Positions 22,123 to 32,000 of a stretch of DNA of 32,000 nucleotides are shown piece after piece. The notes beneath the pieces were generated by a model. It was not told where the DNA came from, did no database searches, and saw only the letters and a list, made by a program, of their open reading frames with translations. How positions within the stretch are numbered: position 1 is the first letter of the stretch; each line of letters opens with the position of its first letter. The position numbers and the translations under genes were made by a program. Source of the stretch: Oscillospiraceae bacterium (GTDB lineage: Bacteria > Bacillota > Clostridia > Oscillospirales > Oscillospiraceae); assembly GCA_051867615.1 (NCBI GenBank), contig JBJDYU010000055.1:1-32000 (forward strand), read 5' to 3'.

Positions 22123-22151
22123 TTGAAGCGGGCAGAAAAAAGGGTTATAAT
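22123..22151 (+). promoter_or_regulatory. Near-consensus sigma-70 promoter for the 370-aa orphan gene
   Basis: TTGAAG (22123-22128), 17-nt spacer, TATAAT (22146-22151). AAAGGAGGGG (22197-22205) precedes the GTG at 22211. Confidence 0.7.
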
Positions 22152-22210: not shown

Positions 22211-23323
22211 GTGCCGGTTTCATTGACACGCTTATCCGCGGTGGAGTTTGACCACATCCTGTACGGTCATATGACGCCCGCTATGGCTGCGGCCTATCTG
22301 CACGATGAGAAGATCCCGCTGCGCAGCTTTTCCGAGACGCTCCGGGAGATGTATCCCGGCCCCGACCTTCTCTCCCGGCTGACAGACTATTTCCTCCTGA
22401 CCGATTCCGGCGCCAACCCCCAGTCTCTGGGCAAGAAGCTGCGCAACTGGCTGTCCGGACGCAACCAGCCGGCCAGCCGGAGCGATTTCTTCCGCATCGC
22501 CTTCGCCCTGCGGCTGAGCGAGCAGCAGCTGGACTATCTGCTGGGGCTGTTCACGGACTACGGCATCCAGTACCGGAACGGCTGGGAGGTGGTGTTCGCC
22601 TGGTTTCTGCGCAACGGCTACGGCTATCTGGAGGCGCAGGAGTTTTTCGTCTCCCTCCCTTCGGTGCCGGGGACGGAGCGGGCGGAGAAGAACTGGACCT
22701 CCCGCCTGACCCACGAGCTGCAAAACGAATTCCAGACGATCTCCACCCTGCAGGACCTGCGGGCCTGCTATCTGAAAAACCTGGGCTACTTCGGCTCGCT
22801 GCACCTGCGCAGCTATTACTACTTCGAGCAGTACTTAAACCAGCTCATCCACCCCACCCCGGTGTGGGAGGGGGACTCGGGGCCGGACTACTCCATCGAG
22901 GCCATCACGAACACCTATCTGTCCATGCAGATGCCCTCGGAGCGGAAGCGCTCCCACTACAATCTGGTGCAGAAGCTCATCAAGCAGAACTGGCCCAACG
23001 CCACCGCCATCAAGAACATCCGCAACCATGTGGAGGATGTTCCCCGGAAGCTGCTGCTGTTGCTCTATGTGGTAACGGAGAACTGCGGCGGCGCCGACGC
23101 CCCCTACCGGGAGCTGGACGAGAGCTACATCACGCCGGAGGAGCGGGTGGAGGACCACTGGTGGACGCTGAACGCCATGCTGACGGACTGCGGCATGGCC
23201 CTGCTGGATCCCCGCAATCCCTTTGACTGGCTGATCCTGTACGCCATCTCCGCCGACGAAAGCGAATTTATGAGCGACCGCATGGAGCAGGTCATCGAGT
23301 ATGTGTTTTCCGACGTGAAATAA
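22211..23323 (+). CDS. Hypothetical cytoplasmic protein, 370 aa, possible N-terminal HTH-like segment
   Basis: A long ORF in the coding-like frame with its own promoter, RBS and terminator. KKLRNWLSGRNQPASRSDFFRIAFALRLSEQQLDYLL resembles an XRE-type HTH. There are no TM segments and I recognise no catalytic motif. Confidence 0.8.
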   Translation: MPVSLTRLSAVEFDHILYGHMTPAMAAAYLHDEKIPLRSFSETLREMYPGPDLLSRLTDYFLLTDSGANPQSLGKKLRNWLSGRNQPASRSDFFRIAFALRLSEQQLDYLLGLFTDYGIQYRNGWEVVFAWFLRNGYGYLEAQEFFVSLPSVPGTERAEKNWTSRLTHELQNEFQTISTLQDLRACYLKNLGYFGSLHLRSYYYFEQYLNQLIHPTPVWEGDSGPDYSIEAITNTYLSMQMPSERKRSHYNLVQKLIKQNWPNATAIKNIRNHVEDVPRKLLLLLYVVTENCGGADAPYRELDESYITPEERVEDHWWTLNAMLTDCGMALLDPRNPFDWLILYAISADESEFMSDRMEQVIEYVFSDVK

Positions 23324-23326
23324 GCG

Positions 23327-23361
23327 AACCGCCCCGCGCCAATGGCGCGGGGCGGTTTTTT
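23327..23361. terminator. Rho-independent terminator shared by convergent genes
   Basis: 12-bp GC stem CCGCCCCGCGCC (23329-23340) / GGCGCGGGGCGG (23344-23355) with a 3-nt loop, then TTTTTT (23356-23361). The hairpin lies 15 nt from the kinase stop at 23376. The U-tract is present only for the plus strand. Confidence 0.85.
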
Positions 23362-23375
23362 CTGTGTTTGACCGA

Positions 23376-26300
23376 TCAATCATCCACAACCTGGGGCGCG
23401 TTTCCGGTCAGGAACGCCCCGGGGAGGGGAATGACCTCAAAGCCCTCATGGGTGTAGACGGTGCCGTAGTTGTTCAGGATACCGGACACATAGGTGTTGC
23501 GCCAGGAGTGGAAGACGCCGTAGTTGTTCACAACGCCCTGCAAAATGGGGGAATCCTCCGTGTCATCGTGGCCCTGCTCCAGAACACCGTAATTGTTAAA
23601 CGTGCCGGTCAGCCAGATCTCATACCCCGACCAGCCGTCCAGCTGAAAACTGCCGTGGTTTTCCACAGTACTGCCGTCCAGGGACAGGGCCGACATGCGG
23701 GATTCAAAGCTGCCGTTCTCGCCGATCTCAACGGTGCAGTCCAGCAGTTCCAGGTCATCCAGGGAATAGAAGGTCCCCTCCTCAACACGGAGCGCTGCCT
23801 GCTCCATGCTGAGCGGCCCCAAGTTGATGATCCGGCCGCCGCCCTCCAAGGTGACTGCCGCGCCGGGCAGATATTGCGGAGCGGAATGACTTCTGTGCAT
23901 CAACAGGGACGCGCCGGTGCTGACGCTGCCGATTCCGCTGACGGTGACGCTGCCGATGTTGGAGATGCGCCCGCGGTCCAGCACCACCGCGCCGTCCCGG
24001 ACCGCCAGATCGTGGCCGGTCAGGTCCACGGTGCCGTGCAGATACAAAAACGCGTTCTCCTCCTCAAAGGTCAGGTCGCCGCTCGCCATGGTCAGGGACG
24101 CGCCGCTGGTAAGAGCCAGCCCCTTGGTGACGGTCAGGCTGCCGTCCAGTGTGATGTCCATACCGTCGGGTATGATCACCAGGGTGTAAGAATCGTCCGC
24201 CAGGGCGGCTTTCAGTTCGTCCCCGCTGCTCACCCGGACGGTGCGCTCGTCGGCGGAGCTCCAGGAGAAGGGTATCCACCGCAGGCAGGAGCGGTCGACC
24301 GCCCCGGTATAAGAGGGCTCCATTCCGTCATGCGTCATGTCGTCGCCAGAATATGTGACCACGCCGCTGAACTGCAGGATGCTGCCGGGGGCCATGCTGA
24401 GGGAGCTGGTGGGTTCGGCCGTCTCGATCAGGCCCATGCCGTCCAGCATACCGCCGCTCTCCACCTCGATGGAACCCAGGTTGATCAGGCAGCCGTCCAC
24501 CAGAAGTCTGCCGTTGTACTCCACCCGGATGACGCCGCAGTTGGTCATCCAGGTACTGCCGCGCAGGGAGACGGAGGGGTCGTATTGATTGCCGGTCACC
24601 ACCAGTTCGCCGCTGTTGTACAGCCTGTCGCAGGTCAGGTTAAAGTCGCCGCTCTGCTCGTCACCGAAATGGGTCATGACGCCCAGATTAAAGATATGAT
24701 TGCCGGAGGAGGCATTGGAGAAAGCGCTGTTGATCTCGCCGTAATTGATCAGGGTGCCCCGGTCTTCCAGCCACAGCGCCCCCTCAATGGTGCCGTAGTT
24801 GACGACGGTGCAGGGATTGTCCGCGCCGTCGTCGCGCCAATCTCCGGTCTGGAGCGCTCCCAGCAGGGTGCCCCGGTTGATCAGGCAGGTGCCGTTGACG
24901 AGCCAGCTGAATCTTTTCTCTTCCTCATCCGGGTCTTCCGGTGCGGTGACGGTGACGCCCTCGCTGATCAGAACGGGGACGGGGGACGCCCGGTTTTCAT
25001 CGGTGACGGTAAAGTCTCCGTCGATGACGATAGCGGTGGTCCGGCTGCTGCTGATCGCGGCCCGGTATTCCTCGAAGGTGGTCACATGGACGGCGTCGGC
25101 AAACAGCTCCTCCTCACACAGGGTGATGACCCATTCGGAGTCCTTCCTCACTTCATAGGACCCGCCGAAAAGATCCGTGCGTGCGCCGCCGCCCAGCGTC
25201 AGGTCGCTTTCATGCTCCAGCCACAGCTCTGATATGCTCAGTTCGCCGCCGTCCGTCACCGTGACGGTACCGCCGCCCTCGGTGCGGAGCAGGCCTTCCG
25301 TGTAGAGGGCGCCCTCGATCACCAGAGCGCCGCCTGCGCCGACGGTAATGGACTGGCCCGCCGCGTTGATGTCGCAGCCCGCCAGCAGGGTGACGGGCTT
25401 GGTGATCTCCAGCGTGCCGCCGAACATGATGCTCAGCTGCCCGTCGATGATGACCGCGGCCACGCTGTCATTCGCCAGAGCGGCCCGCAGCTCCTCCGGG
25501 GTGGTGACATGGGCCGTCTCCCCGGCGGTCGCATCGGGGTTCTGGGATGGATCGGACGCCGTGCCGCCGCCCCGGGGCAGGATCACCGCCAGCAAAATGA
25601 GCAGCAGCGCCGCCGCTCCGGCGACGGCTCCCCATACGCCTCCCGGCACCTTCCACCGCGCCCGGCAGGGCTGACCGTCCCCGTCTATCTCAGCGGGGGC
25701 GGGTGCTTCTTCCGTCTTCGGCGGCTCCTCCGCCGCGCTCCGGGTCTCCGGAAGCGGCGCGGTTTCCGCCACAGTCTTCGCCTCCGGCTCCGGCGCGGTC
25801 TCCGGCACGGGCACGAAAACCTCCGGCGCGGGGGCGTACAGGTCGGCGCGCAGCTCCTCTACGGTCTGATAGCGCCGGTTGGGACGGATCATCAGGCCCT
25901 TCAGCAGCGCCGCCTCCTGATGGGGCGAAATGTCCACGCCCAGCTTGCTGGGCAGCAGCAGTCCGTCCTCCACGATGCGGTCCAGCGCCTGAGGCGGCGC
26001 TTTCCCGGTCAGGCAGAAATAGATGGTGGCGCAGAGGGAATAAATGTCCGTCCACGGCCCCTGGCCCTTTTGCTGGTACTGCTCCAGTGGAGCGTAGCCG
26101 TGCTTCAGGGCGATGGTCAGGGTCTCCGTGCCCCGGGAGGTCTCCCGGGCGCAGCCGAAATCCAGCAGCCGCACCCTGCCGTTTTCCAGCATCAGGTTGT
26201 CCGGCGAGATGTCCCGGTGGATCAGCCCGGTCTCATGCATGATGGACAGGGCCTGGAACAGGGGCTCCAGCGTCTGAAACAGCTCCTTCGGCGGGATGCG

Positions 26301-26783
26301 CCCACCCTTTTGCTCCACCAGATGGCTGAAGGTGGTCCCCTCGATGTACTCCATGACGATATAGGCGGTGTTGTTGGCCTGGAAAAAGTCCCGGACGCCC
26401 ACGATCACCTGCTGCTTGTCCATCCGGGCCATGGTCCGGGCCTCGTCCAGAAATTTCTGCTTGCCCCGCTCAAAGCTCTGGGCGGACAGGCCCATGAAGC
26501 TGGTCACATCCAGCGTCGCGGCGGCGTTGCGGGTGGAGCGGTCCACCGGATAATACTCCTTGATGGCCACCTTCAGCTCCAGCCGCAGATCGCAGCCGAT
26601 ATAGGTGATGCCGAAGCCGCCCTCGCCCAGCACCCGTCCCACCAGATACCTATCCAGCAGGACGGTCCCCGGCGGCAGGTGGTGGGGCGAAGGCACATAG
26701 CTTCCCGCCGTCAGGCCGCAGACCGGACAGCTTTCGCCCGGGCGCACCCGGGTCATGCAATAGGGGCAATACTGCTTATCCAC
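23376..26783 (-). CDS. Membrane Ser/Thr protein kinase: N-terminal zinc ribbon, Hanks kinase domain, TM, large repetitive beta-helix-like ectodomain
   Basis: ORF 23376..26801. Preferred GTG at 26783 has GAAGGAGG 8 nt upstream. Motifs: CPYC..CPVC, G-loop GEGGFG, VAIKE, HRDISPDN, DFG, YAPLEQ. A Pro/Ala/Glu linker is followed by TM GVWGAVAGAAALLLILLAVIL and ~730 extracytoplasmic aa with repeated NYG-type units. No PASTA repeats. Confidence 0.9.
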   Translation of the reverse strand: MDKQYCPYCMTRVRPGESCPVCGLTAGSYVPSPHHLPPGTVLLDRYLVGRVLGEGGFGITYIGCDLRLELKVAIKEYYPVDRSTRNAAATLDVTSFMGLSAQSFERGKQKFLDEARTMARMDKQQVIVGVRDFFQANNTAYIVMEYIEGTTFSHLVEQKGGRIPPKELFQTLEPLFQALSIMHETGLIHRDISPDNLMLENGRVRLLDFGCARETSRGTETLTIALKHGYAPLEQYQQKGQGPWTDIYSLCATIYFCLTGKAPPQALDRIVEDGLLLPSKLGVDISPHQEAALLKGLMIRPNRRYQTVEELRADLYAPAPEVFVPVPETAPEPEAKTVAETAPLPETRSAAEEPPKTEEAPAPAEIDGDGQPCRARWKVPGGVWGAVAGAAALLLILLAVILPRGGGTASDPSQNPDATAGETAHVTTPEELRAALANDSVAAVIIDGQLSIMFGGTLEITKPVTLLAGCDINAAGQSITVGAGGALVIEGALYTEGLLRTEGGGTVTVTDGGELSISELWLEHESDLTLGGGARTDLFGGSYEVRKDSEWVITLCEEELFADAVHVTTFEEYRAAISSSRTTAIVIDGDFTVTDENRASPVPVLISEGVTVTAPEDPDEEEKRFSWLVNGTCLINRGTLLGALQTGDWRDDGADNPCTVVNYGTIEGALWLEDRGTLINYGEINSAFSNASSGNHIFNLGVMTHFGDEQSGDFNLTCDRLYNSGELVVTGNQYDPSVSLRGSTWMTNCGVIRVEYNGRLLVDGCLINLGSIEVESGGMLDGMGLIETAEPTSSLSMAPGSILQFSGVVTYSGDDMTHDGMEPSYTGAVDRSCLRWIPFSWSSADERTVRVSSGDELKAALADDSYTLVIIPDGMDITLDGSLTVTKGLALTSGASLTMASGDLTFEEENAFLYLHGTVDLTGHDLAVRDGAVVLDRGRISNIGSVTVSGIGSVSTGASLLMHRSHSAPQYLPGAAVTLEGGGRIINLGPLSMEQAALRVEEGTFYSLDDLELLDCTVEIGENGSFESRMSALSLDGSTVENHGSFQLDGWSGYEIWLTGTFNNYGVLEQGHDDTEDSPILQGVVNNYGVFHSWRNTYVSGILNNYGTVYTHEGFEVIPLPGAFLTGNAPQVVDD

Positions 26784-26820
26784 GGACCGCACCTCCTTCA
26801 CCGGGCGAAAAATTGTTTAT

Positions 26821-26876: not shown

Positions 26877-28040
26877 CTACAGCAAAAGCAGGAGCAGGAG
26901 GATGACGATAACGACGCCCGCCAGGCCCAGCAGCAACTTCAGCCCATGCTTACGCAAAAAGTCGGGCAGGCTCTGCCGGGGCGTGGGCGTGACCGCTTCG
27001 GTCGCGGGACTGTCCGTATTCTCCTGCAGCGGCTGGGAGGCGCCGCTCCAGGTGGACTGCACCAGGGTCTTTTCCAGCCGGGAGGCCAGCTCCTCCATGT
27101 TCTGGGGCCGGACCGTGGGCTGGAGGGCCAGGCCCCACAGCAAAAGCTCCTCCTGCTCCCGGCTCAGGGCCGCGCCCAAAGCGCTTGGCGGGAGCAGCGG
27201 GTCGTTCTGGCCGTCAAAGGTGGCGCTCAGCCGCTCCGGGGCGGCGGGAGGCACCTTGCCCGTCAGGCAATAATACAGCGTGGCGCAGAGCGCGTACACG
27301 TCGGTATACGGTCCCTGCCCCCGGGTCTGATACTGCTCGATAGGGGCGAAGCCGGGCTTGAGGACCACCGTCATGGACTTGCCGTCCTCCATGGAGCGGG
27401 CGCAGCCGAAGTCCAGCAGCGTCAGCGTCCCATCCGGCATGAGCATGATGTTGTCCGGCGCGATGTCCCGGTGCAGCACGCCCGCCTCGTGGATGGCCCC
27501 CAGGTCGCGCATCAGGGGCAGGACCTTTTTCAGCAGGAGGTTCGGTTCAAAGCGGCTCTGGCTCTGCAGCAGGTCCCGCAGGGTCGTGCCGTTCAGGTAG
27601 TCCATGACCATATAGGCGGTGCCGTTGGCCTCGAAAAAGTCCAGCACATGGACGATGGAGGGGGTGCCCGCCACCGCCCGCAGCATACTGGCCTCGCTGA
27701 GGAAGCTGTGCATCCCCTGCCGGTAGATCTCCTCCATCTGGGTCGTGGGACATACGGAGTGGTCGGGCCGCCGCTGGGGCTGGCAGCGGGTGGGGAAATA
27801 TTCCTTGATGGCCACCACCTTGCCGGAGGTCAGCTCCTTGGCGATATAGGTCAGGCCGAAGCCGCCGTCCCCCTTCACCTCACCGAACAGGAAGGTGTGT
27901 CCCTTCTGGCTGCGCAGCACCGTGCCGATGGGCAGCTGGTGCGGCGCGGCGCGCTGGTCCACGTCCCGCCCGCACACGGGGCAGAAAGCGTCCTCGCCGG
28001 AAAGTGCCTGCATACAATGGGGACAGAATCTATCCCGCAT
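26877..28040 (-). CDS. Tail-anchored Ser/Thr protein kinase with N-terminal zinc ribbon and no ectodomain
   Basis: Motifs: CPHC..CPVC, G-loop GDGGFG, VAIKE, HRDIAPDN, DFG, FAPIEQ. The last 21 aa, LKLLLGLAGVVIVILLLLLLL, run straight into the stop codon. The ATG at 28040 is 1 nt from the upstream stop. Confidence 0.9.
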   Translation of the reverse strand: MRDRFCPHCMQALSGEDAFCPVCGRDVDQRAAPHQLPIGTVLRSQKGHTFLFGEVKGDGGFGLTYIAKELTSGKVVAIKEYFPTRCQPQRRPDHSVCPTTQMEEIYRQGMHSFLSEASMLRAVAGTPSIVHVLDFFEANGTAYMVMDYLNGTTLRDLLQSQSRFEPNLLLKKVLPLMRDLGAIHEAGVLHRDIAPDNIMLMPDGTLTLLDFGCARSMEDGKSMTVVLKPGFAPIEQYQTRGQGPYTDVYALCATLYYCLTGKVPPAAPERLSATFDGQNDPLLPPSALGAALSREQEELLLWGLALQPTVRPQNMEELASRLEKTLVQSTWSGASQPLQENTDSPATEAVTPTPRQSLPDFLRKHGLKLLLGLAGVVIVILLLLLLL

Positions 28041-28041
28041 C

Positions 28042-29400
28042 TCAGTCCGGCCTCCTCTCCGCGATCACGAAGCTCTGCTCCTGGGAGCCGAGGAAAAACG
28101 CCTCTCCGGGCCGGAGCTGCACGGCCTGCTCCGCCGCCAGCCTGCGTCCCGGCGCCAGGAAGGTGCCGTGGCTGGAGCCGAGGTCCTTGATATACACGCA
28201 GCCATCTTCATACCACACCGCGCAGTGCCGTGCGCTGACGCCCGGGGTATTGGCCGGGAACACCACGCCGCACTGCTGCGGGTCGCGTCCCAGAATGACC
28301 GCATCCCGCCTGCCGATCATAAAGCGCTTGTCCTCCAGCGCGCCGGAAACGCCCTGAATACGGAAGCCGGAATCGCCGGACGCGGGAGCGGAGGCCGATG
28401 CGGGCACAGCCGGGGCCGCTTTCTGTTCCTGCGGGCCCTTTTTCTTTTTCAGCACCACCAGCAGCACCACGGCGATCACCGCCGCGGCAGCCACCGCCAG
28501 AGCGATCCAGAGCCAGGGCGCGGAGGAAGCCTCCTCCGCCATTTCGTAGGGAACGTCGTGGAGCCTGAGCATGGGCAGGACTTCGTCGATGTTCACGGCG
28601 TAATAGATCTTATCCGTGGAGTTGGACACCGTGAAGGTGTTGACGCCCAGCACCGCTCCCGCCTCGTTGACCAGCGGGCCGCCGGAATTGCCCGCCATGA
28701 TGACGGCGTCGGTCTGTATGGCGGAAACGCCGGTGCCGCTGGTGGTCATCAGGCGGCTGACCACGCCCTTGTTCACCGTGGCGTCCGTCTCGCTCCAGGA
28801 GGAGGTGGAGGATATGTACTCATTCTCCGCAAGGCTGGGATAGCCCACCGTGTAGACAGTGCTGCCCACCATTTCCTCCGTGGGGCTCATCAGCTTCAGC
28901 GGCGAGCGCTTGTCCGTGGGAGCGGCCAGACGGAGCAGGGCCACGTCCTTGATGGAATCGGAGTCCACCAGATAGGCCTCCACATAGTCCTCGGGCGCAA
29001 AGTACACCCGGATCATGGCCCGGCCGGAGTAGACGCTGTTCTGCGTCCAGCTGGCCGCCATATCCAGCAGCTGGCTGTAGGTGTAGAACCCGCCGAAGAC
29101 ATCCAGCAGGGTGTCAAAGTCCATCTGGATCAGCTCGCCGGAGCCGCAGGCGATATAGTCGTCGATCACATGGTGATTGGTGATCAGGTACTGGGGCGCT
29201 TCGCCGGAGCTGCCCACAAAAAAGCCGGTGCCCCAGCCGAACTCCAGCCAGGTCCCCTCCAGCTCAAAGCCGATGTCCACAACAGCCACGCTGCCGCGCA
29301 CATCGGACACGGCGGCGGACGTACCGGCGGCACGGGCAAAGCCGGTCAGGCTGCACAGGATGCAAAACGTGGCCACAAAGGCGGTCAGTCTTCGCTTCAT
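28042..29400 (-). CDS. Secreted trypsin-like S1 serine protease fused via one TM helix to a cytoplasmic FHA domain
   Basis: ORF 28042..29511. Preferred ATG at 29400 (GGGAGG upstream) gives signal peptide MKRRLTAFVATFCILCSLTGFARA. Triad contexts: LITNHHVI, KDVALLRL, AGNSGGPLVN. TM WLWIALAVAAAAVIAVVLLVVL is followed by KKKK. The C-terminal FHA reads ILGRD...GVSARHCAVWYEDGCVYIKDLGSSHGTFL. Confidence 0.88.
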   Translation of the reverse strand: MKRRLTAFVATFCILCSLTGFARAAGTSAAVSDVRGSVAVVDIGFELEGTWLEFGWGTGFFVGSSGEAPQYLITNHHVIDDYIACGSGELIQMDFDTLLDVFGGFYTYSQLLDMAASWTQNSVYSGRAMIRVYFAPEDYVEAYLVDSDSIKDVALLRLAAPTDKRSPLKLMSPTEEMVGSTVYTVGYPSLAENEYISSTSSWSETDATVNKGVVSRLMTTSGTGVSAIQTDAVIMAGNSGGPLVNEAGAVLGVNTFTVSNSTDKIYYAVNIDEVLPMLRLHDVPYEMAEEASSAPWLWIALAVAAAAVIAVVLLVVLKKKKGPQEQKAAPAVPASASAPASGDSGFRIQGVSGALEDKRFMIGRRDAVILGRDPQQCGVVFPANTPGVSARHCAVWYEDGCVYIKDLGSSHGTFLAPGRRLAAEQAVQLRPGEAFFLGSQEQSFVIAERRPD

Positions 29401-29420: not shown

Positions 29421-30134
29421 TCACGCGGTCACCCAGACCGCAGCGGCGGTATTGTTGTCGTTGTCGGCGGGGATACGGCTGTTCAGCAGCGCCCGCATCC
29501 GGTCCAGCCAATCCTGCGGAGACGCGGCCGCGGCCAGCTCCCGCTCCATTTCGCTTTCATACACATACTCCCAAAAGCCGTCGGAGCAGAGCAAAAACGC
29601 GTGGCTCCCCGGCTCCAGCGCGGTCTCGCCGGCGTCAGCCTCTCCGCCGCCCTGCTGGCCCAGCGCCCGGTAAATGTGGCTGCGGTCCTCATGGAAGCGG
29701 ATCTCCTCCGGCGTGATCTGGCCCAGCAGCACCGCGATCTGCGAGGCGCTGTGGTCCCGGGTCTGCCAGACGAGACGCCCCCCGGCGAAATGGTACAGCC
29801 GGGAGTCCCCGGCATAGGCCCAGTCAAAGCGGCCCTTTTCCAGAGCCAACACCACCACCGTGGTCTTCATCTGGCAGCGCGGCGTCTGCATGGACAGCAC
29901 CTGCTGGTGCGCCTTGCGCACCAGCTCGCAAAGGCTCTGGGGCGTCGCCCCTCCCTGCCAGCCGTCCAGAATGGTCCGGGCGGCGGCGGATGACGCCGCT
30001 TCTCCGCCGCCATGGCCGCCCAGCCCGTCCGCCAGCACCGCGCACAGCCGCTCTCCGTCCAGCTGTCTGACCAGCACCGTGTCCTCGTTGCAGGGACGGC
30101 CTCCCGCGGCGGAATAGCTTGCATATTGCATCAC
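29421..30134 (-). CDS. PP2C-family Ser/Thr phosphatase (soluble)
   Basis: Motifs NEDTVLV, LADGLGGHGGGEAAS, CSDGFWEY, DNNTAAAVWV. AGGAGG lies 10 nt upstream of the GTG at 30134 (ATG at 30131 is an alternative). Confidence 0.9.
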   Translation of the reverse strand: MMQYASYSAAGGRPCNEDTVLVRQLDGERLCAVLADGLGGHGGGEAASSAAARTILDGWQGGATPQSLCELVRKAHQQVLSMQTPRCQMKTTVVVLALEKGRFDWAYAGDSRLYHFAGGRLVWQTRDHSASQIAVLLGQITPEEIRFHEDRSHIYRALGQQGGGEADAGETALEPGSHAFLLCSDGFWEYVYESEMERELAAAASPQDWLDRMRALLNSRIPADNDNNTAAAVWVTA

Positions 30135-30155: not shown

Positions 30156-31115
30156 TTATTGCAGCTGCCCGGCGCTCCGCGCTCCGTCGGCGGCGCACTC
30201 CAGGATCACGGCAGTGTAGTTGTCCTGATTGCTGTAATTCTTCTCCTGGACCGCCGCCCGGATGGCCTGCGCCGCTTCTTCCGGCCCGGCCTCCAGCGCC
30301 CGGGCCAGCTCCTCGCCGCTCAGCGCGTTATACACGCCGTCGCTCATCAAAATCAGCTTATCGCCGCTCAGCAGGCGGATGGGCGCGGCGGGCAGGTCGA
30401 TACCCGCGAGCTTCCCCATGCCCAAAAAGCTGGTGAGTCCATTCCCCTGGGGATCGGAAAGGGCTTCCTGCACGGACAGCTCTCCGTTGACCGCCCGCAG
30501 GGCCAAGTCGTTTTGATAGGTGTGCTCCCGGTTGAGCTGGGTCAGGACTCCGCCGCGGTAGAGGCAGATGCGGCTGTCGCCGATGCTCAGAAAGGAAAAG
30601 CTCCCCTCCCTGACCAGGCCCATAGCCAGCGTGGAACCGCTCCGGCGGCAGCCCTCCGGCCCCAGCAGCTCGTTGACCGCCTGCGCCGCGCTTTGCGCCA
30701 GAGTCAGCAGCAGCTGCTCCGGCCCCGCCGCGTCCCGGCACAGAATAAATTCGTCCAAAACGGCCTGCACCGCCGCGGCGCTGACCTTGTCGCCGTCGGA
30801 CAGGCCGCCCATGCCGTCCGCCACCACCGCCAAAAGGCCGTGGGTGGACATCAGCGCCTCGTCCGAAACGGCAAAGCAGTCCTGCTGCCCCTCGCGGGCG
30901 CCCTGCTCATGCAGCTTGCCGACGGAGACCCGATCCACCCGGGGAAGCTCCGCCGCGCGCTTTCCGCCACTGTGCAATCTCGCCTTTCTCACGCCCCAGA
31001 CAGCCAGCAGCAACAGCAGCGCAGCCACTGCGAGCAAGGCCGCCGCAGCCGCCCACAGCGGCAGCGTCACGCCTTGCAGCGCTCCGCTCTCACCGTAAAC
31101 CAGCCACTCACGCAT
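30156..31115 (-). CDS. Membrane-anchored PP2C-family Ser/Thr phosphatase (N-terminal TM)
   Basis: ORF 30156..31202. Preferred ATG at 31115 overlaps the upstream stop (ATGCGTGA). TM LPLWAAAAALLAVAALLLLLAVWGV is followed by RKARLH. PP2C motifs: QDCFAV, VADGMGGLSDGD, MSDGVYN, DNYTAVIL. Confidence 0.88.
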   Translation of the reverse strand: MREWLVYGESGALQGVTLPLWAAAAALLAVAALLLLLAVWGVRKARLHSGGKRAAELPRVDRVSVGKLHEQGAREGQQDCFAVSDEALMSTHGLLAVVADGMGGLSDGDKVSAAAVQAVLDEFILCRDAAGPEQLLLTLAQSAAQAVNELLGPEGCRRSGSTLAMGLVREGSFSFLSIGDSRICLYRGGVLTQLNREHTYQNDLALRAVNGELSVQEALSDPQGNGLTSFLGMGKLAGIDLPAAPIRLLSGDKLILMSDGVYNALSGEELARALEAGPEEAAQAIRAAVQEKNYSNQDNYTAVILECAADGARSAGQLQ

Positions 31116-31752
31116 TGCCCCGTTCCTCGCTGTTCCAGCTGAACTGTTCGCCGCAGAGGCTGACGAAGACCAGCTGGGTGGTGCCGATGGTGATGCGGTC
31201 ATAATTGTGCAGCTGCGTGCTTCCGCCGATGACAGGCATATTGTTCACCAGCAGCACGTTTTTGCCCAGCTCATGGGCGATATAGAACTGGCGGGTCTGG
31301 GGGACGTAGGTGACGTTGGCATCCTTCTCCGCAGAAATGGTGCTGTCGCCCCGGATGCAGATATCGCCCGCCTCCCGACCGATGTAGTTGTAGCCGGTGT
31401 GGATGCGGTAATCCGTGCCGCGGCAGGGGCCTTCCACCGCCACCAGCCAGCCTACCACCGGCGCGGGAGCGCCCGCGGGCGTGGAGCTGTCCACGAACTG
31501 GGTCTTGCCCATGCGCTCAGACGCGCCGCTGCCCGGATTGGGGGCGATGGTGGAATTGAAATTGCCATACCCGCCGGGCGCGGCGGCCCCGTCCAGCTCC
31601 GCCGTGGCGCCGCAGGAAGCGGCGCCCCCGGCAAAGGGGTCCACGGTGGGCGAGAAGCTGCCTGAGCCGCAATAGGGACAGCTGGCATAGCGGTTAGCGT
31701 CGTAGTAGTGGCCCTGGGGGCAGCTGATGATCTTCTGACGGATTTCTGCCAT
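31108..31752 (-). CDS. Zinc-ribbon protein with C-terminal FHA-like domain
   Basis: N-terminus MAEIRQKIISCPQGHYYDANRYASCPYCG, then a Gly/Ala/Pro-rich linker. The C-terminal ~100 aa have an FHA-like pattern (GWLVAVEGPCRGTDYRIHTGYNYIGREAGDICIRGDSTIS...LLVNNMPV...ITIGTTQLVF), but the canonical S-R-H is replaced. GAGGAGG precedes the ATG. Confidence 0.75.
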   Translation of the reverse strand: MAEIRQKIISCPQGHYYDANRYASCPYCGSGSFSPTVDPFAGGAASCGATAELDGAAAPGGYGNFNSTIAPNPGSGASERMGKTQFVDSSTPAGAPAPVVGWLVAVEGPCRGTDYRIHTGYNYIGREAGDICIRGDSTISAEKDANVTYVPQTRQFYIAHELGKNVLLVNNMPVIGGSTQLHNYDRITIGTTQLVFVSLCGEQFSWNSEERGNA

Positions 31753-31790: not shown

Positions 31791-32000
31791 TTACGCGCCA
31801 AAAATCTCGATTTGAAACAGGTTATTGGAACTGCCCAGATAGAAGCGGGTACCGGAGACCACCCGCTCGGGATAATTGGGGGGCAGCTGCCGGCCATTGT
31901 CCAGGAATGTGCCGTAGCGGGAGCCCAGATCCACCAGCACCGGAATGTCCCGCTCCCAGCGAAGGCAGCAATGCCGGCTGCTGATCCCCGGCGTCCCATC
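31791..32000 (-). CDS. FHA domain protein, C-terminal 69 codons only (gene continues beyond the window)
   Basis: This frame is not in the supplied ORF track because it has no in-window start. The reverse-strand frame ending at TAA (31793-31791) reads DGTPGISSRHCCLRWERDIPVLVDLGSRYGTFLDNGRQLPPNYPERVVSGTRFYLGSSNNLFQIEIFGA, which carries the canonical FHA core S-R-H ... DLGS-x-x-GT. Confidence 0.8.
   Translation of the reverse strand, partial: DGTPGISSRHCCLRWERDIPVLVDLGSRYGTFLDNGRQLPPNYPERVVSGTRFYLGSSNNLFQIEIFGA

Follow-up and report, generated by a model that had tools for sequence, protein, structure and literature searches.

Can phosphorylation inside a bacterial cell decide where a protease works outside it? 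This question is raised by a gene in the window analyzed here, a 32,000-nucleotide (nt) stretch from an Oscillospiraceae bacterium (contig JBJDYU010000055.1 of assembly GCA_051867615.1, positions 1 to 32,000), which codes for an HtrA-like S1 protease connected to an FHA domain through a single transmembrane (TM) helix. The protease-FHA protein represents a real, widespread and uncharacterised family, in which known parts occur in a new combination, and its gene lies in a cassette of Hanks kinases and PP2C phosphatases. We assign a probability of roughly 0.55 to the reading in which the FHA domain docks on the co-encoded kinases in a phosphorylation-dependent, PP2C-reversible manner, recruiting, and perhaps clustering, the protease at the outer face of the membrane.

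Protease, membrane helix and FHA domain of a single protein

The gene and its parts are as follows (aa, amino acid residues; pLDDT, predicted local distance difference test score); here and below, conservation counts refer to a 98-sequence family alignment.

28042..29400, minus strand: whole gene, coding for signal peptide, HtrA-like S1 protease, TM helix, linker and FHA domain, 452 aa
29410..29415, minus strand: ribosome-binding site GGGAGG, 9 nt 5′ of the ATG of the protease-FHA gene
29329..29400, minus strand: predicted signal peptide, aa 1-24 (MKRR, a hydrophobic region, and ARA followed by AG), from hydropathy and an AlphaFold helix at aa 2-20
28531..29289, minus strand: HtrA-like chymotrypsin-fold protease domain, aa 38-290 (Pfam Trypsin_2 at aa 57-253), without PDZ
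29170..29172, minus strand: predicted catalytic His77 (TNHHV), His in 98/98, aligned to TNYHV of Deg1
28945..28947, minus strand: predicted catalytic Asp152 (KDVALLRL), Asp in 97/98, aligned to kDvAvLRi of Deg1
28684..28686, minus strand: predicted catalytic Ser239 (GNSGGP), Ser in 98/98, aligned to GNSGGP of Deg1/HtrA2
28450..28515, minus strand: predicted TM helix, aa 296-317 (Kyte-Doolittle 3.26; AlphaFold helix at aa 295-318)
28375..28449, minus strand: KKKK stop-transfer signal and disordered Pro/Ala/Ser linker, aa 318-342 (pLDDT <50 for aa 319-340)
28057..28374, minus strand: FHA domain, aa 343-448 (Pfam at aa 368-435)

The gene, on the minus strand, starts with the ATG at 29400 and ends with a TGA stop at 28044-28042, and independent gene calls in three other assemblies agree on this start. 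A longer open reading frame (ORF) from TTG 29511 was rejected, as it overlaps the PP2C gene and is used neither by homologues nor by the independent gene calls; moreover, ATG 29400 has a strong ribosome-binding site and opens with MK(K/R)R as homologues do. The 452-aa product is 100% identical to NCBI entry MGM9619736.1, a “trypsin-like peptidase domain-containing protein” from an Oscillospiraceae metagenome-assembled genome (MAG). All of the strings quoted in the first-pass annotation, which a model had made from the sequence alone, are found in the translation (MKRRLTAFVATFCILCSLTGFARA, LITNHHVI, KDVALLRL, AGNSGGPLVN, KKKK and GVSARHCAVWYEDGCVYIKDLGSSHGTFL).

The same annotation had described an S1 protease with a His/Asp/Ser triad and no PDZ domain, which is borne out by Pfam, by motif alignment with Deg1/HtrA, by Foldseek and by conservation across the family. 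The Pfam Trypsin_2 profile matches aa 57-253 at E 2.7e-21 (77.3 bits, above the cutoff of 27.6), the Trypsin profile matches the protein at E 8e-14 (52.4 bits, above the cutoff of 20.6), and a Pfam search of the 452-aa protein for a PDZ domain gave no match. Among solved structures, HtrA-family proteases are closest to the protein in sequence, with Deg1 found at E 1.8e-13 from the single sequence and at 1e-20 from the family profile, and the motifs align to those of Deg1 as GsGtgFF...YLiTNhHVi to GSGSGFV...HIVTNYHVI, kDlAvLrL to kDvAvLRi, and GNSGGP to GNSGGP. The AlphaFold2 model, built on the 98 homologues with a mean pLDDT of 87.6, consists of a helix (aa 2-20), a two-barrel protease (aa 38-290), a second helix (aa 295-318), a disordered segment (aa 319-340) and a beta-sandwich (aa 343-448). 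In a Foldseek comparison with PDB, the top 50 matches were all HtrA1, HtrA3, DegS, DegP, DegQ or Deg1 (E ~1e-13), the best being the protease domains of HtrA1, DegS and HtrA3, and template modelling scores (TM-scores) relative to the target were 0.75-0.81 for these best matches, 0.71-0.81 for isolated protease domains in general and 0.44-0.59 for PDZ-bearing matches. Since the triad is invariant or nearly so, proteolysis itself appears to be under selection.

The catalytic His is followed by an insertion of about 30 residues (DFDTLLDVFGGFYTYSQLLDMAASWTQNSV; aa 91-121, approximately 29040-29130), for which the model shows short helices. Most family members lack it; apart from this protein, it occurs in a few relatives, for instance P0016, P0019 and P0022.

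The topology was judged from hydropathy, charge bias, family-wide patterns and AlphaFold helices. Both hydrophobic segments are present in 98/98 homologues; the N-terminal flank of the TM helix carries a net charge of -4 without any Lys or Arg, the C-terminal flank is KKKK, and Lys/Arg content is higher on the cytoplasmic than on the outer flank in 97/98 homologues. A type I layout, with the protease outside and the FHA domain inside, is the sole arrangement fitting every one of these features, and the sequence and the model are consistent with it. Thus, the earlier proposal of an outer protease and an inner FHA domain separated by a single TM helix with a positive-inside KKKK holds by hydropathy, by the charge bias and by the AlphaFold helices. 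A loose lipobox pattern flags 45/98 export signals, and in about 40 of these the N-terminal segment ends in (C/L)(T/A/V)GC, with AxA-type sites in the rest of the family, which suggests that the N-terminus is exported via two types of signal across the family. Many homologues are probably lipidated at the mature N-terminus rather than simply cleaved.

Between the TM helix and the FHA domain, the linker varies from 12 to 78 aa across the family, is rich in Pro, Ala and Ser, is poorly conserved, and contains no Thr in 21/98 members, including this protein. An unconserved, Thr-poor linker argues against a conserved intramolecular phosphothreonine switch and against allosteric transmission, and autoinhibition by an intramolecular linker phosphothreonine was rejected as a general mechanism on the same grounds.

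The FHA domain is matched by the Pfam FHA profile (PF00498) at aa 368-435 with E 7e-12 (46 bits, above the cutoff of 20.7), and is modelled as ten beta-strands at aa 343-448 within a block of pLDDT 91-97 (aa 341-440); the nearest solved FHA domain by sequence is that of Sulfolobus ArnA (E 3e-5). Gly371, Ser389, His392, Gly412 and Thr413 are invariant in the family, and Arg372 is found in 92/98 members. The domain had initially been called canonical, and this stands as far as the FHA score, the phosphate-binding Arg and Ser and the conserved His are concerned, but not for the Asn of (S/T)-N-G-T, which is replaced by His411. The domain is therefore best described as one that appears to retain its phosphate-binding residues, yet is not fully canonical.

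A word-indexed search recovered 479 clusters at 90% identity, of which the best 120 all combine Trypsin_2 and FHA in proteins of about 410-505 aa, and an exhaustive search of 50%-identity representatives recovered 590 proteins at E ≤ 1e-30. The Trypsin_2-TM-FHA architecture, for which a database check had been suggested at the outset, thus defines a large family, mostly from gut Clostridia. Its hosts are nearly all MAGs, assigned to Lachnospiraceae, Oscillospiraceae, Ruminococcus, Blautia, Christensenellales and Monoglobus. It is worth adding that an Acidobacteriota MAG (Candidatus Marinacidobacterium, L055:9812-11176) codes for the same Trypsin_2-TM-FHA architecture, with kinases, PP2C and a Zn-ribbon FHA-like protein nearby, which suggests that the cassette has either spread horizontally or arisen earlier.

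A cassette of kinases, phosphatases and FHA proteins

In the window, the protease-FHA gene is one of a series of same-strand genes forming an operon that is closed by a strong bidirectional terminator. In order of transcription, these are the edge-cut FHA gene, the Zn-ribbon FHA-like gene, the TM-anchored PP2C, the soluble PP2C, the protease-TM-FHA gene, the tail-anchored kinase and the receptor kinase:

31791..32000, minus strand: 3′ end of a further FHA gene, cut at the window edge (...GISSRHCCLRW...DLGSRYGTFL...); at the same position in locus L004, the orthologue codes for a membrane protein in which DUF805 is followed by a C-terminal FHA domain
31108..31752, minus strand: Zn-ribbon protein with a degenerate FHA-like domain, 214 aa (sub-threshold matches to FHA, E 0.055, and YscD_cpl, E 0.014)
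30156..31202, minus strand: membrane-anchored PP2C phosphatase, probable start at 31115, 319 aa
29421..30134, minus strand: soluble PP2C phosphatase, 237 aa, directly upstream of the protease-FHA gene, with its stop at 29421
26877..28040, minus strand: tail-anchored kinase with Zn ribbon, Hanks kinase domain and C-terminal TM helix, no ectodomain, 387 aa, beginning 1 nt past the protease stop
23376..26801, minus strand: receptor kinase with Zn ribbon, Hanks kinase domain, TM helix and an ectodomain of about 730 aa, 1141 aa in total
23326..23358, both strands: bidirectional intrinsic terminator ending the operon, located between the 370-aa gene and the kinase operon, with a 15-bp stem (12 G-C pairs) and T-runs on both strands
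22211..23323, plus strand: convergent, cassette-linked, highly conserved all-alpha protein, 370 aa

Proteins of the window were searched against ORFs of 80 related loci, 48 of which hold a full-length protease-FHA homologue. Within 10 kb and on the same strand, a kinase is present in 46 of these 48 loci, a PP2C in 45, the Zn-ribbon FHA-like protein in 42, and all three in 40. The upstream neighbour of the protease-FHA gene is a PP2C in 40/48 loci, while its downstream neighbour is a kinase in 25/48, and many junctions between cassette genes fall between -4 and +4 nt. Conserved synteny, together with these tight or overlapping junctions, strongly supports a link between the protease-FHA protein and Hanks kinases.

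The gap of 1 nt between the protease stop and the ATG of the next kinase, to which the first-pass annotation had drawn attention, is exact (TGA-g-ATG), and the ribosome-binding site of the kinase (GGAGAGGAGG) sits within the final codons of the protease gene. Of the “stoichiometric co-expression” that had been read from this spacer, translational coupling stays plausible, but the 1-nt gap is confined to the closest clade, and the downstream gene is a PP2C in 12/48 loci.

The strongest comparative argument for a docking tag comes from sister cassettes in Lachnospiraceae and relatives, where the same FHA clade is found behind a signal peptide-vWA-TM module, behind a signal peptide followed by an unknown ectodomain of about 240 aa and a TM helix, behind a multi-TM PrsW protease, and behind DUF805. 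Loci with PrsW-, vWA- or unknown-ectodomain FHA proteins include L056, L057, L058, L063, L064, L069, L070, L013 and L035, and at L035 the S1-FHA and PrsW-FHA genes adjoin each other. The FHA domain of one sister protein that was compared is 38% identical to that of the target, and the FHA domain alone aligns. As two unrelated protease classes and several ectodomains share one cytoplasmic tag, the FHA tail looks like a docking device, which would address the various outer modules to the kinase complex. The possibility that the unknown ectodomain of the sister proteins is a degenerate S1 protease was rejected, since a profile-profile comparison aligned the FHA domain alone. One of these loci, L069, belongs to a cultured strain, Enterocloster lavalensis KCTC 15153, which carries the PrsW-FHA version.

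Both Hanks kinases look active, as VAIK, HRD and DFG are intact in their translations, and both have conserved activation-loop threonines in a pT-x-x-[I/L] context, which is favoured by many FHA domains. In orthologues of the tail-anchored kinase, Thr224 of SM-T-VVL is Thr in 85% and Ser or Thr in 95%; in orthologues of the receptor kinase, Thr227 and Thr229 of T-[LM]-T-I-A-L are conserved in 100% and 95%, respectively. These threonines are candidate docking sites for the FHA domain. The two kinases differ in what they would expose outside: the sole hydrophobic segment of the 387-aa kinase is its final 24 residues, hence it should have no extracellular part, although longer orthologues of 650-930 aa occur in more distant loci. 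Receptor kinase orthologues are 57-82% identical in the kinase domain and 12-32% in the ectodomain, so that the latter, the putative outer sensor of the system, evolves fast; its one database match is a weak one, to a pectate-lyase-like adhesive repeat. A CxxC...CxxC zinc ribbon opens both Hanks kinases, the 214-aa FHA-like protein and the PrsW-FHA protein of L035, and it is unusual for the cytoplasmic players of one cassette to have an N-terminal Zn ribbon in common.

At 55-92% identity over 120 clusters, the convergent 370-aa protein surpasses the protease in conservation, and its AlphaFold model is confident and all-alpha (predicted TM-score 0.80). No Pfam match was obtained for it even at E ≤ 1, and no PDB fold match below E 0.5. 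Its gene marks the boundary of the cassette, since other loci do not share the genes that lie past it, and it is preceded by a sigma-70-like promoter, TTGAAG-17-TATAAT, at 22123-22151. The annotation, which covers 11.7-32 kb of the window, contains no secretion-system genes.

Proposed docking of the FHA tail and its alternatives

In the reading that we favour, Sec export and signal-peptide cleavage would leave a PDZ-less protease, predicted to be catalytically competent, on the outer face of the cytoplasmic membrane. Docking of FHA domains on autophosphorylated Hanks kinases is established, for example for GarA, FhaA and FipA in mycobacteria, and the FHA tail may likewise dock on phosphothreonine of the co-encoded membrane kinases after their autophosphorylation, with the two PP2C phosphatases reversing the interaction. 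Once docked, the protease would be part of the kinase complex and might also be clustered there, which is conceivable because HtrA proteases act as oligomers, and an extracytoplasmic target would then be cleaved where and when the kinases are active. We infer the binding of the FHA domain to the kinases, its dependence on phosphorylation, and regulation by recruitment or clustering, from the parts of the protein and their context. The first-pass annotation had already envisaged such an “inside-out” mechanism, in which a kinase would recruit the protease, and an ectodomain or a wall substrate would be cleaved; the idea is a sensible one, to which synteny and the modular use of the FHA tail lend support. 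As for the substrate, the best candidate, on speculative grounds, is the rapidly diverging ectodomain that the partner receptor kinase would expose, or a factor attached to that ectodomain. This would be the most economical choice because the ectodomain is the sole large extracytoplasmic part encoded by the cassette.

Several points weigh against docking of this kind. The usual Asn of (S/T)-N-G-T, replaced by His411 here, is His in 78, Tyr in 13, Phe in 6 and Asn in only 1 of the 98 clade members, and 6/98 members lack the Arg of the FHA Gly-Arg motif. Certain FHA domains, such as those of YscD and EssC, function independently of phosphorylation. The order of neighbours varies, with a PP2C downstream of the protease-FHA gene in a quarter of the loci (12/48), so that no single fixed partner is implied. 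Furthermore, a long disordered linker cannot pass allostery, and regulation could act solely via location or clustering.

The replaced Asn and the missing Arg would also suit a phosphorylation-independent scaffold, in which the FHA domain binds its partners without phosphothreonine, as in YscD of the type III secretion system (T3SS) and EssC of the type VII secretion system (T7SS), and the protein is a structural subunit of a membrane complex. A weak match to Yop-YscD_cpl (E 1.6e-4, below the cutoff) points in the same direction, but Arg372 is kept in most members and Ser389 and His392 in all, and the gene is almost constantly linked to PP2C phosphatases and to active-looking kinases with HRD and DFG intact, which leaves the scaffold quite improbable. 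If signals were instead to travel from the outside in, as in a split receptor, the protease would be mainly an extracytoplasmic sensor or peptide binder, in the way that DegS senses peptides, and the FHA tail would nucleate or stimulate the tail-anchored kinase, which ends in its TM helix and has no residues outside. That kinase starts 1 nt past the protease stop and is the immediate downstream neighbour in 18/48 loci. Moreover, FHA proteins of kinase operons can raise kinase phosphorylation, as described for DRA0333 of Deinococcus radiodurans in a preprint (10.64898/2026.01.23.701218). Nevertheless, the near-invariance of the triad (His and Ser in 98/98, Asp in 97/98) speaks for selection on proteolysis, neighbouring kinases in distant loci have ectodomains of their own (400-900 aa) and the adjacent gene there is a PP2C, and the FHA domain would require a kinase that is already phosphorylated; we therefore regard a split receptor as unlikely.

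A role in general envelope quality control would make the protein a membrane-tethered HtrA paralogue degrading misfolded exports, merely positioned by its FHA domain at sites of Ser/Thr kinase activity, such as the septum or secretion zones. Its nearest relatives in sequence and fold are indeed the quality-control proteases HtrA, DegP and DegS. However, the PDZ domain is lost, the cassette is a dedicated and horizontally shuffled one, with kinases, PP2Cs and other FHA proteins in 40/48 loci, and sister cassettes carry the non-protease vWA and unknown ectodomains on the same FHA tail, indicating a cassette-specific role; such housekeeping is accordingly very doubtful. Overall, a purely sensory or scaffold role is disfavoured by the invariant triad, and a housekeeping role by the dedicated cassette.

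The phosphorylation-dependent docking that we prefer may be extended, tentatively and with considerable doubt, to the cassette as a whole, which could be a sensor of threat or contact at the cell surface. The fast-evolving ectodomain would detect a cue, FHA-tailed membrane proteins would read the ensuing autophosphorylation, the protease would shed the activated ectodomain or degrade an antagonist or a surface protein, the two PP2Cs would reverse the response, and the 370-aa protein would provide the cytoplasmic output. If so, bacteria would control extracellular proteolysis from the inside out, with phosphorylation as the gate.

Bacterial Hanks kinases are usually viewed as relaying outside signals to cytoplasmic substrates, and here a phosphothreonine reader would form the cytoplasmic tail of an extracytoplasmic protease in about 590 clusters, mostly from gut Clostridia. 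The sharing of one reader by protease, vWA, PrsW and unknown modules suggests a general coupling of kinase phosphorylation state to proteolysis, adhesion and surface remodelling outside the membrane. If true, docking would be a bacterial counterpart, open to direct testing, of regulated ectodomain shedding or of signalling from the inside out, and would explain what a “trypsin-like peptidase domain-containing protein” common among abundant gut commensals does.

Comparison with known systems

Full-text literature searches yielded no study of a Trypsin-TM-FHA protein, and the sole bacterial mention of FHA together with trypsin was an FHA-FHA-Trypsin protein of Bacteroides thetaiotaomicron, NP_811686.1, listed without analysis in a table of a 2008 survey (PMC2605481). 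Judged by this listing, it has the reverse order, with two N-terminal FHA domains, and comes from another phylum. VanZ-FHA fusions have also been noted (PMC12419801). Membership of the protease-FHA protein in the MarP, DegS, DegP, FipA, TagH and YscD families was rejected, as all scores fall well below the curated cutoffs, and the NCBIfam matches to DegP, DegS, HtrA and MarP are partial. For the HtrA/DegP/DegS models of NCBIfam the scores were 34-80 bits against cutoffs of 408-756 (at best 80.5 against 416 for degP_htrA_DO, and 45.8 against 423 for DegS), for the MarP family (NF033740) 43.4 against 250, for the T3SS YscD model Yop-YscD_cpl 22.3 against 33.2, and for VI_FHA, representing TagH of the type VI secretion system (T6SS), 22.7 against 120. 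Membership in an anti-phage defence system was likewise rejected, because PADLOC returned generic trypsin and kinase domain matches alone (RT-Protease_XI, PD-T4-6 and mad6), with no system architecture.

In its logic, the cassette can be compared with the PpkA-PppA-Fha1 system of T6SS and with the actinobacterial Esr pathway, in which an FHA protein is likewise under the control of a kinase/PP2C pair and its remaining domains determine the output. A preprint on the Esr pathway describes its FHA output protein in at least 13 domain configurations (PMC13622651). In both of these systems the outputs are cytoplasmic, whereas here the output or partner domain would lie outside the membrane, and neither vWA-MoxR nor beta-propeller sensor genes are present in this window. 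An operon combining FHA, PP2C, kinase and vWA genes is described in Deinococcus (10.64898/2026.01.23.701218). Neither these works nor that on VanZ-FHA fusions reports the protease-TM-FHA arrangement. The closest counterparts are the FHA proteins of the sister cassettes (PrsW-FHA, signal peptide-vWA-TM-FHA, signal peptide-X-TM-FHA and DUF805-FHA), which belong to the same FHA clade and have the same cassette context; three of them share the type I layout, and they differ in the outer or membrane module.

Mycobacteria offer two further parallels. MarP (Rv3671c), which acts in envelope signalling, is also a membrane-anchored extracytoplasmic S1 protease without PDZ, but has four N-terminal TM helices and no FHA domain, in contrast to the signal-like segment and single TM helix seen here. 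FhaB/FipA (Rv0019c) and the FhaA cluster (fhaA-fhaB-pstP-rodA-pbpA-pknA-pknB) share with this cassette the arrangement of TM helix, linker and cytoplasmic FHA domain beside a PP2C and two Hanks kinases, and the NCBIfam model FhaB_Rv0019c (NF049868) matches precisely the TM-linker-FHA part, aa 297-428, although at a sub-threshold 31 bits (cutoff 125). FipA, however, has no extracytoplasmic enzyme domain, while the TM helix here comes after a protease domain of about 270 aa, and neither RodA nor PBP genes are found in this cassette.

With HtrA, DegP and DegS (MEROPS S1C), the protein shares the chymotrypsin fold and the TNxHV, D-[IV]-A-[VL]-L and GNSGGP motifs. It is particularly similar to DegS in being, by prediction, extracytoplasmic and membrane-tethered, with a peptide-binding regulatory domain located C-terminally to the protease. 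It departs from this group in the absence of PDZ, in the insertion after the catalytic His, and in the possession of a signal peptide and a C-terminal TM helix, as opposed to the N-terminal anchor of DegS; besides, the C-terminal binding domain is a cytoplasmic FHA domain across the membrane, and not a periplasmic PDZ domain. By analogy, the protein resembles a DegS-type tethered protease in which the regulator has been moved across the membrane, with PDZ exchanged for FHA, and it equally resembles a TM-FHA adaptor of the FipA/FhaB type to which an outer enzyme has been added.

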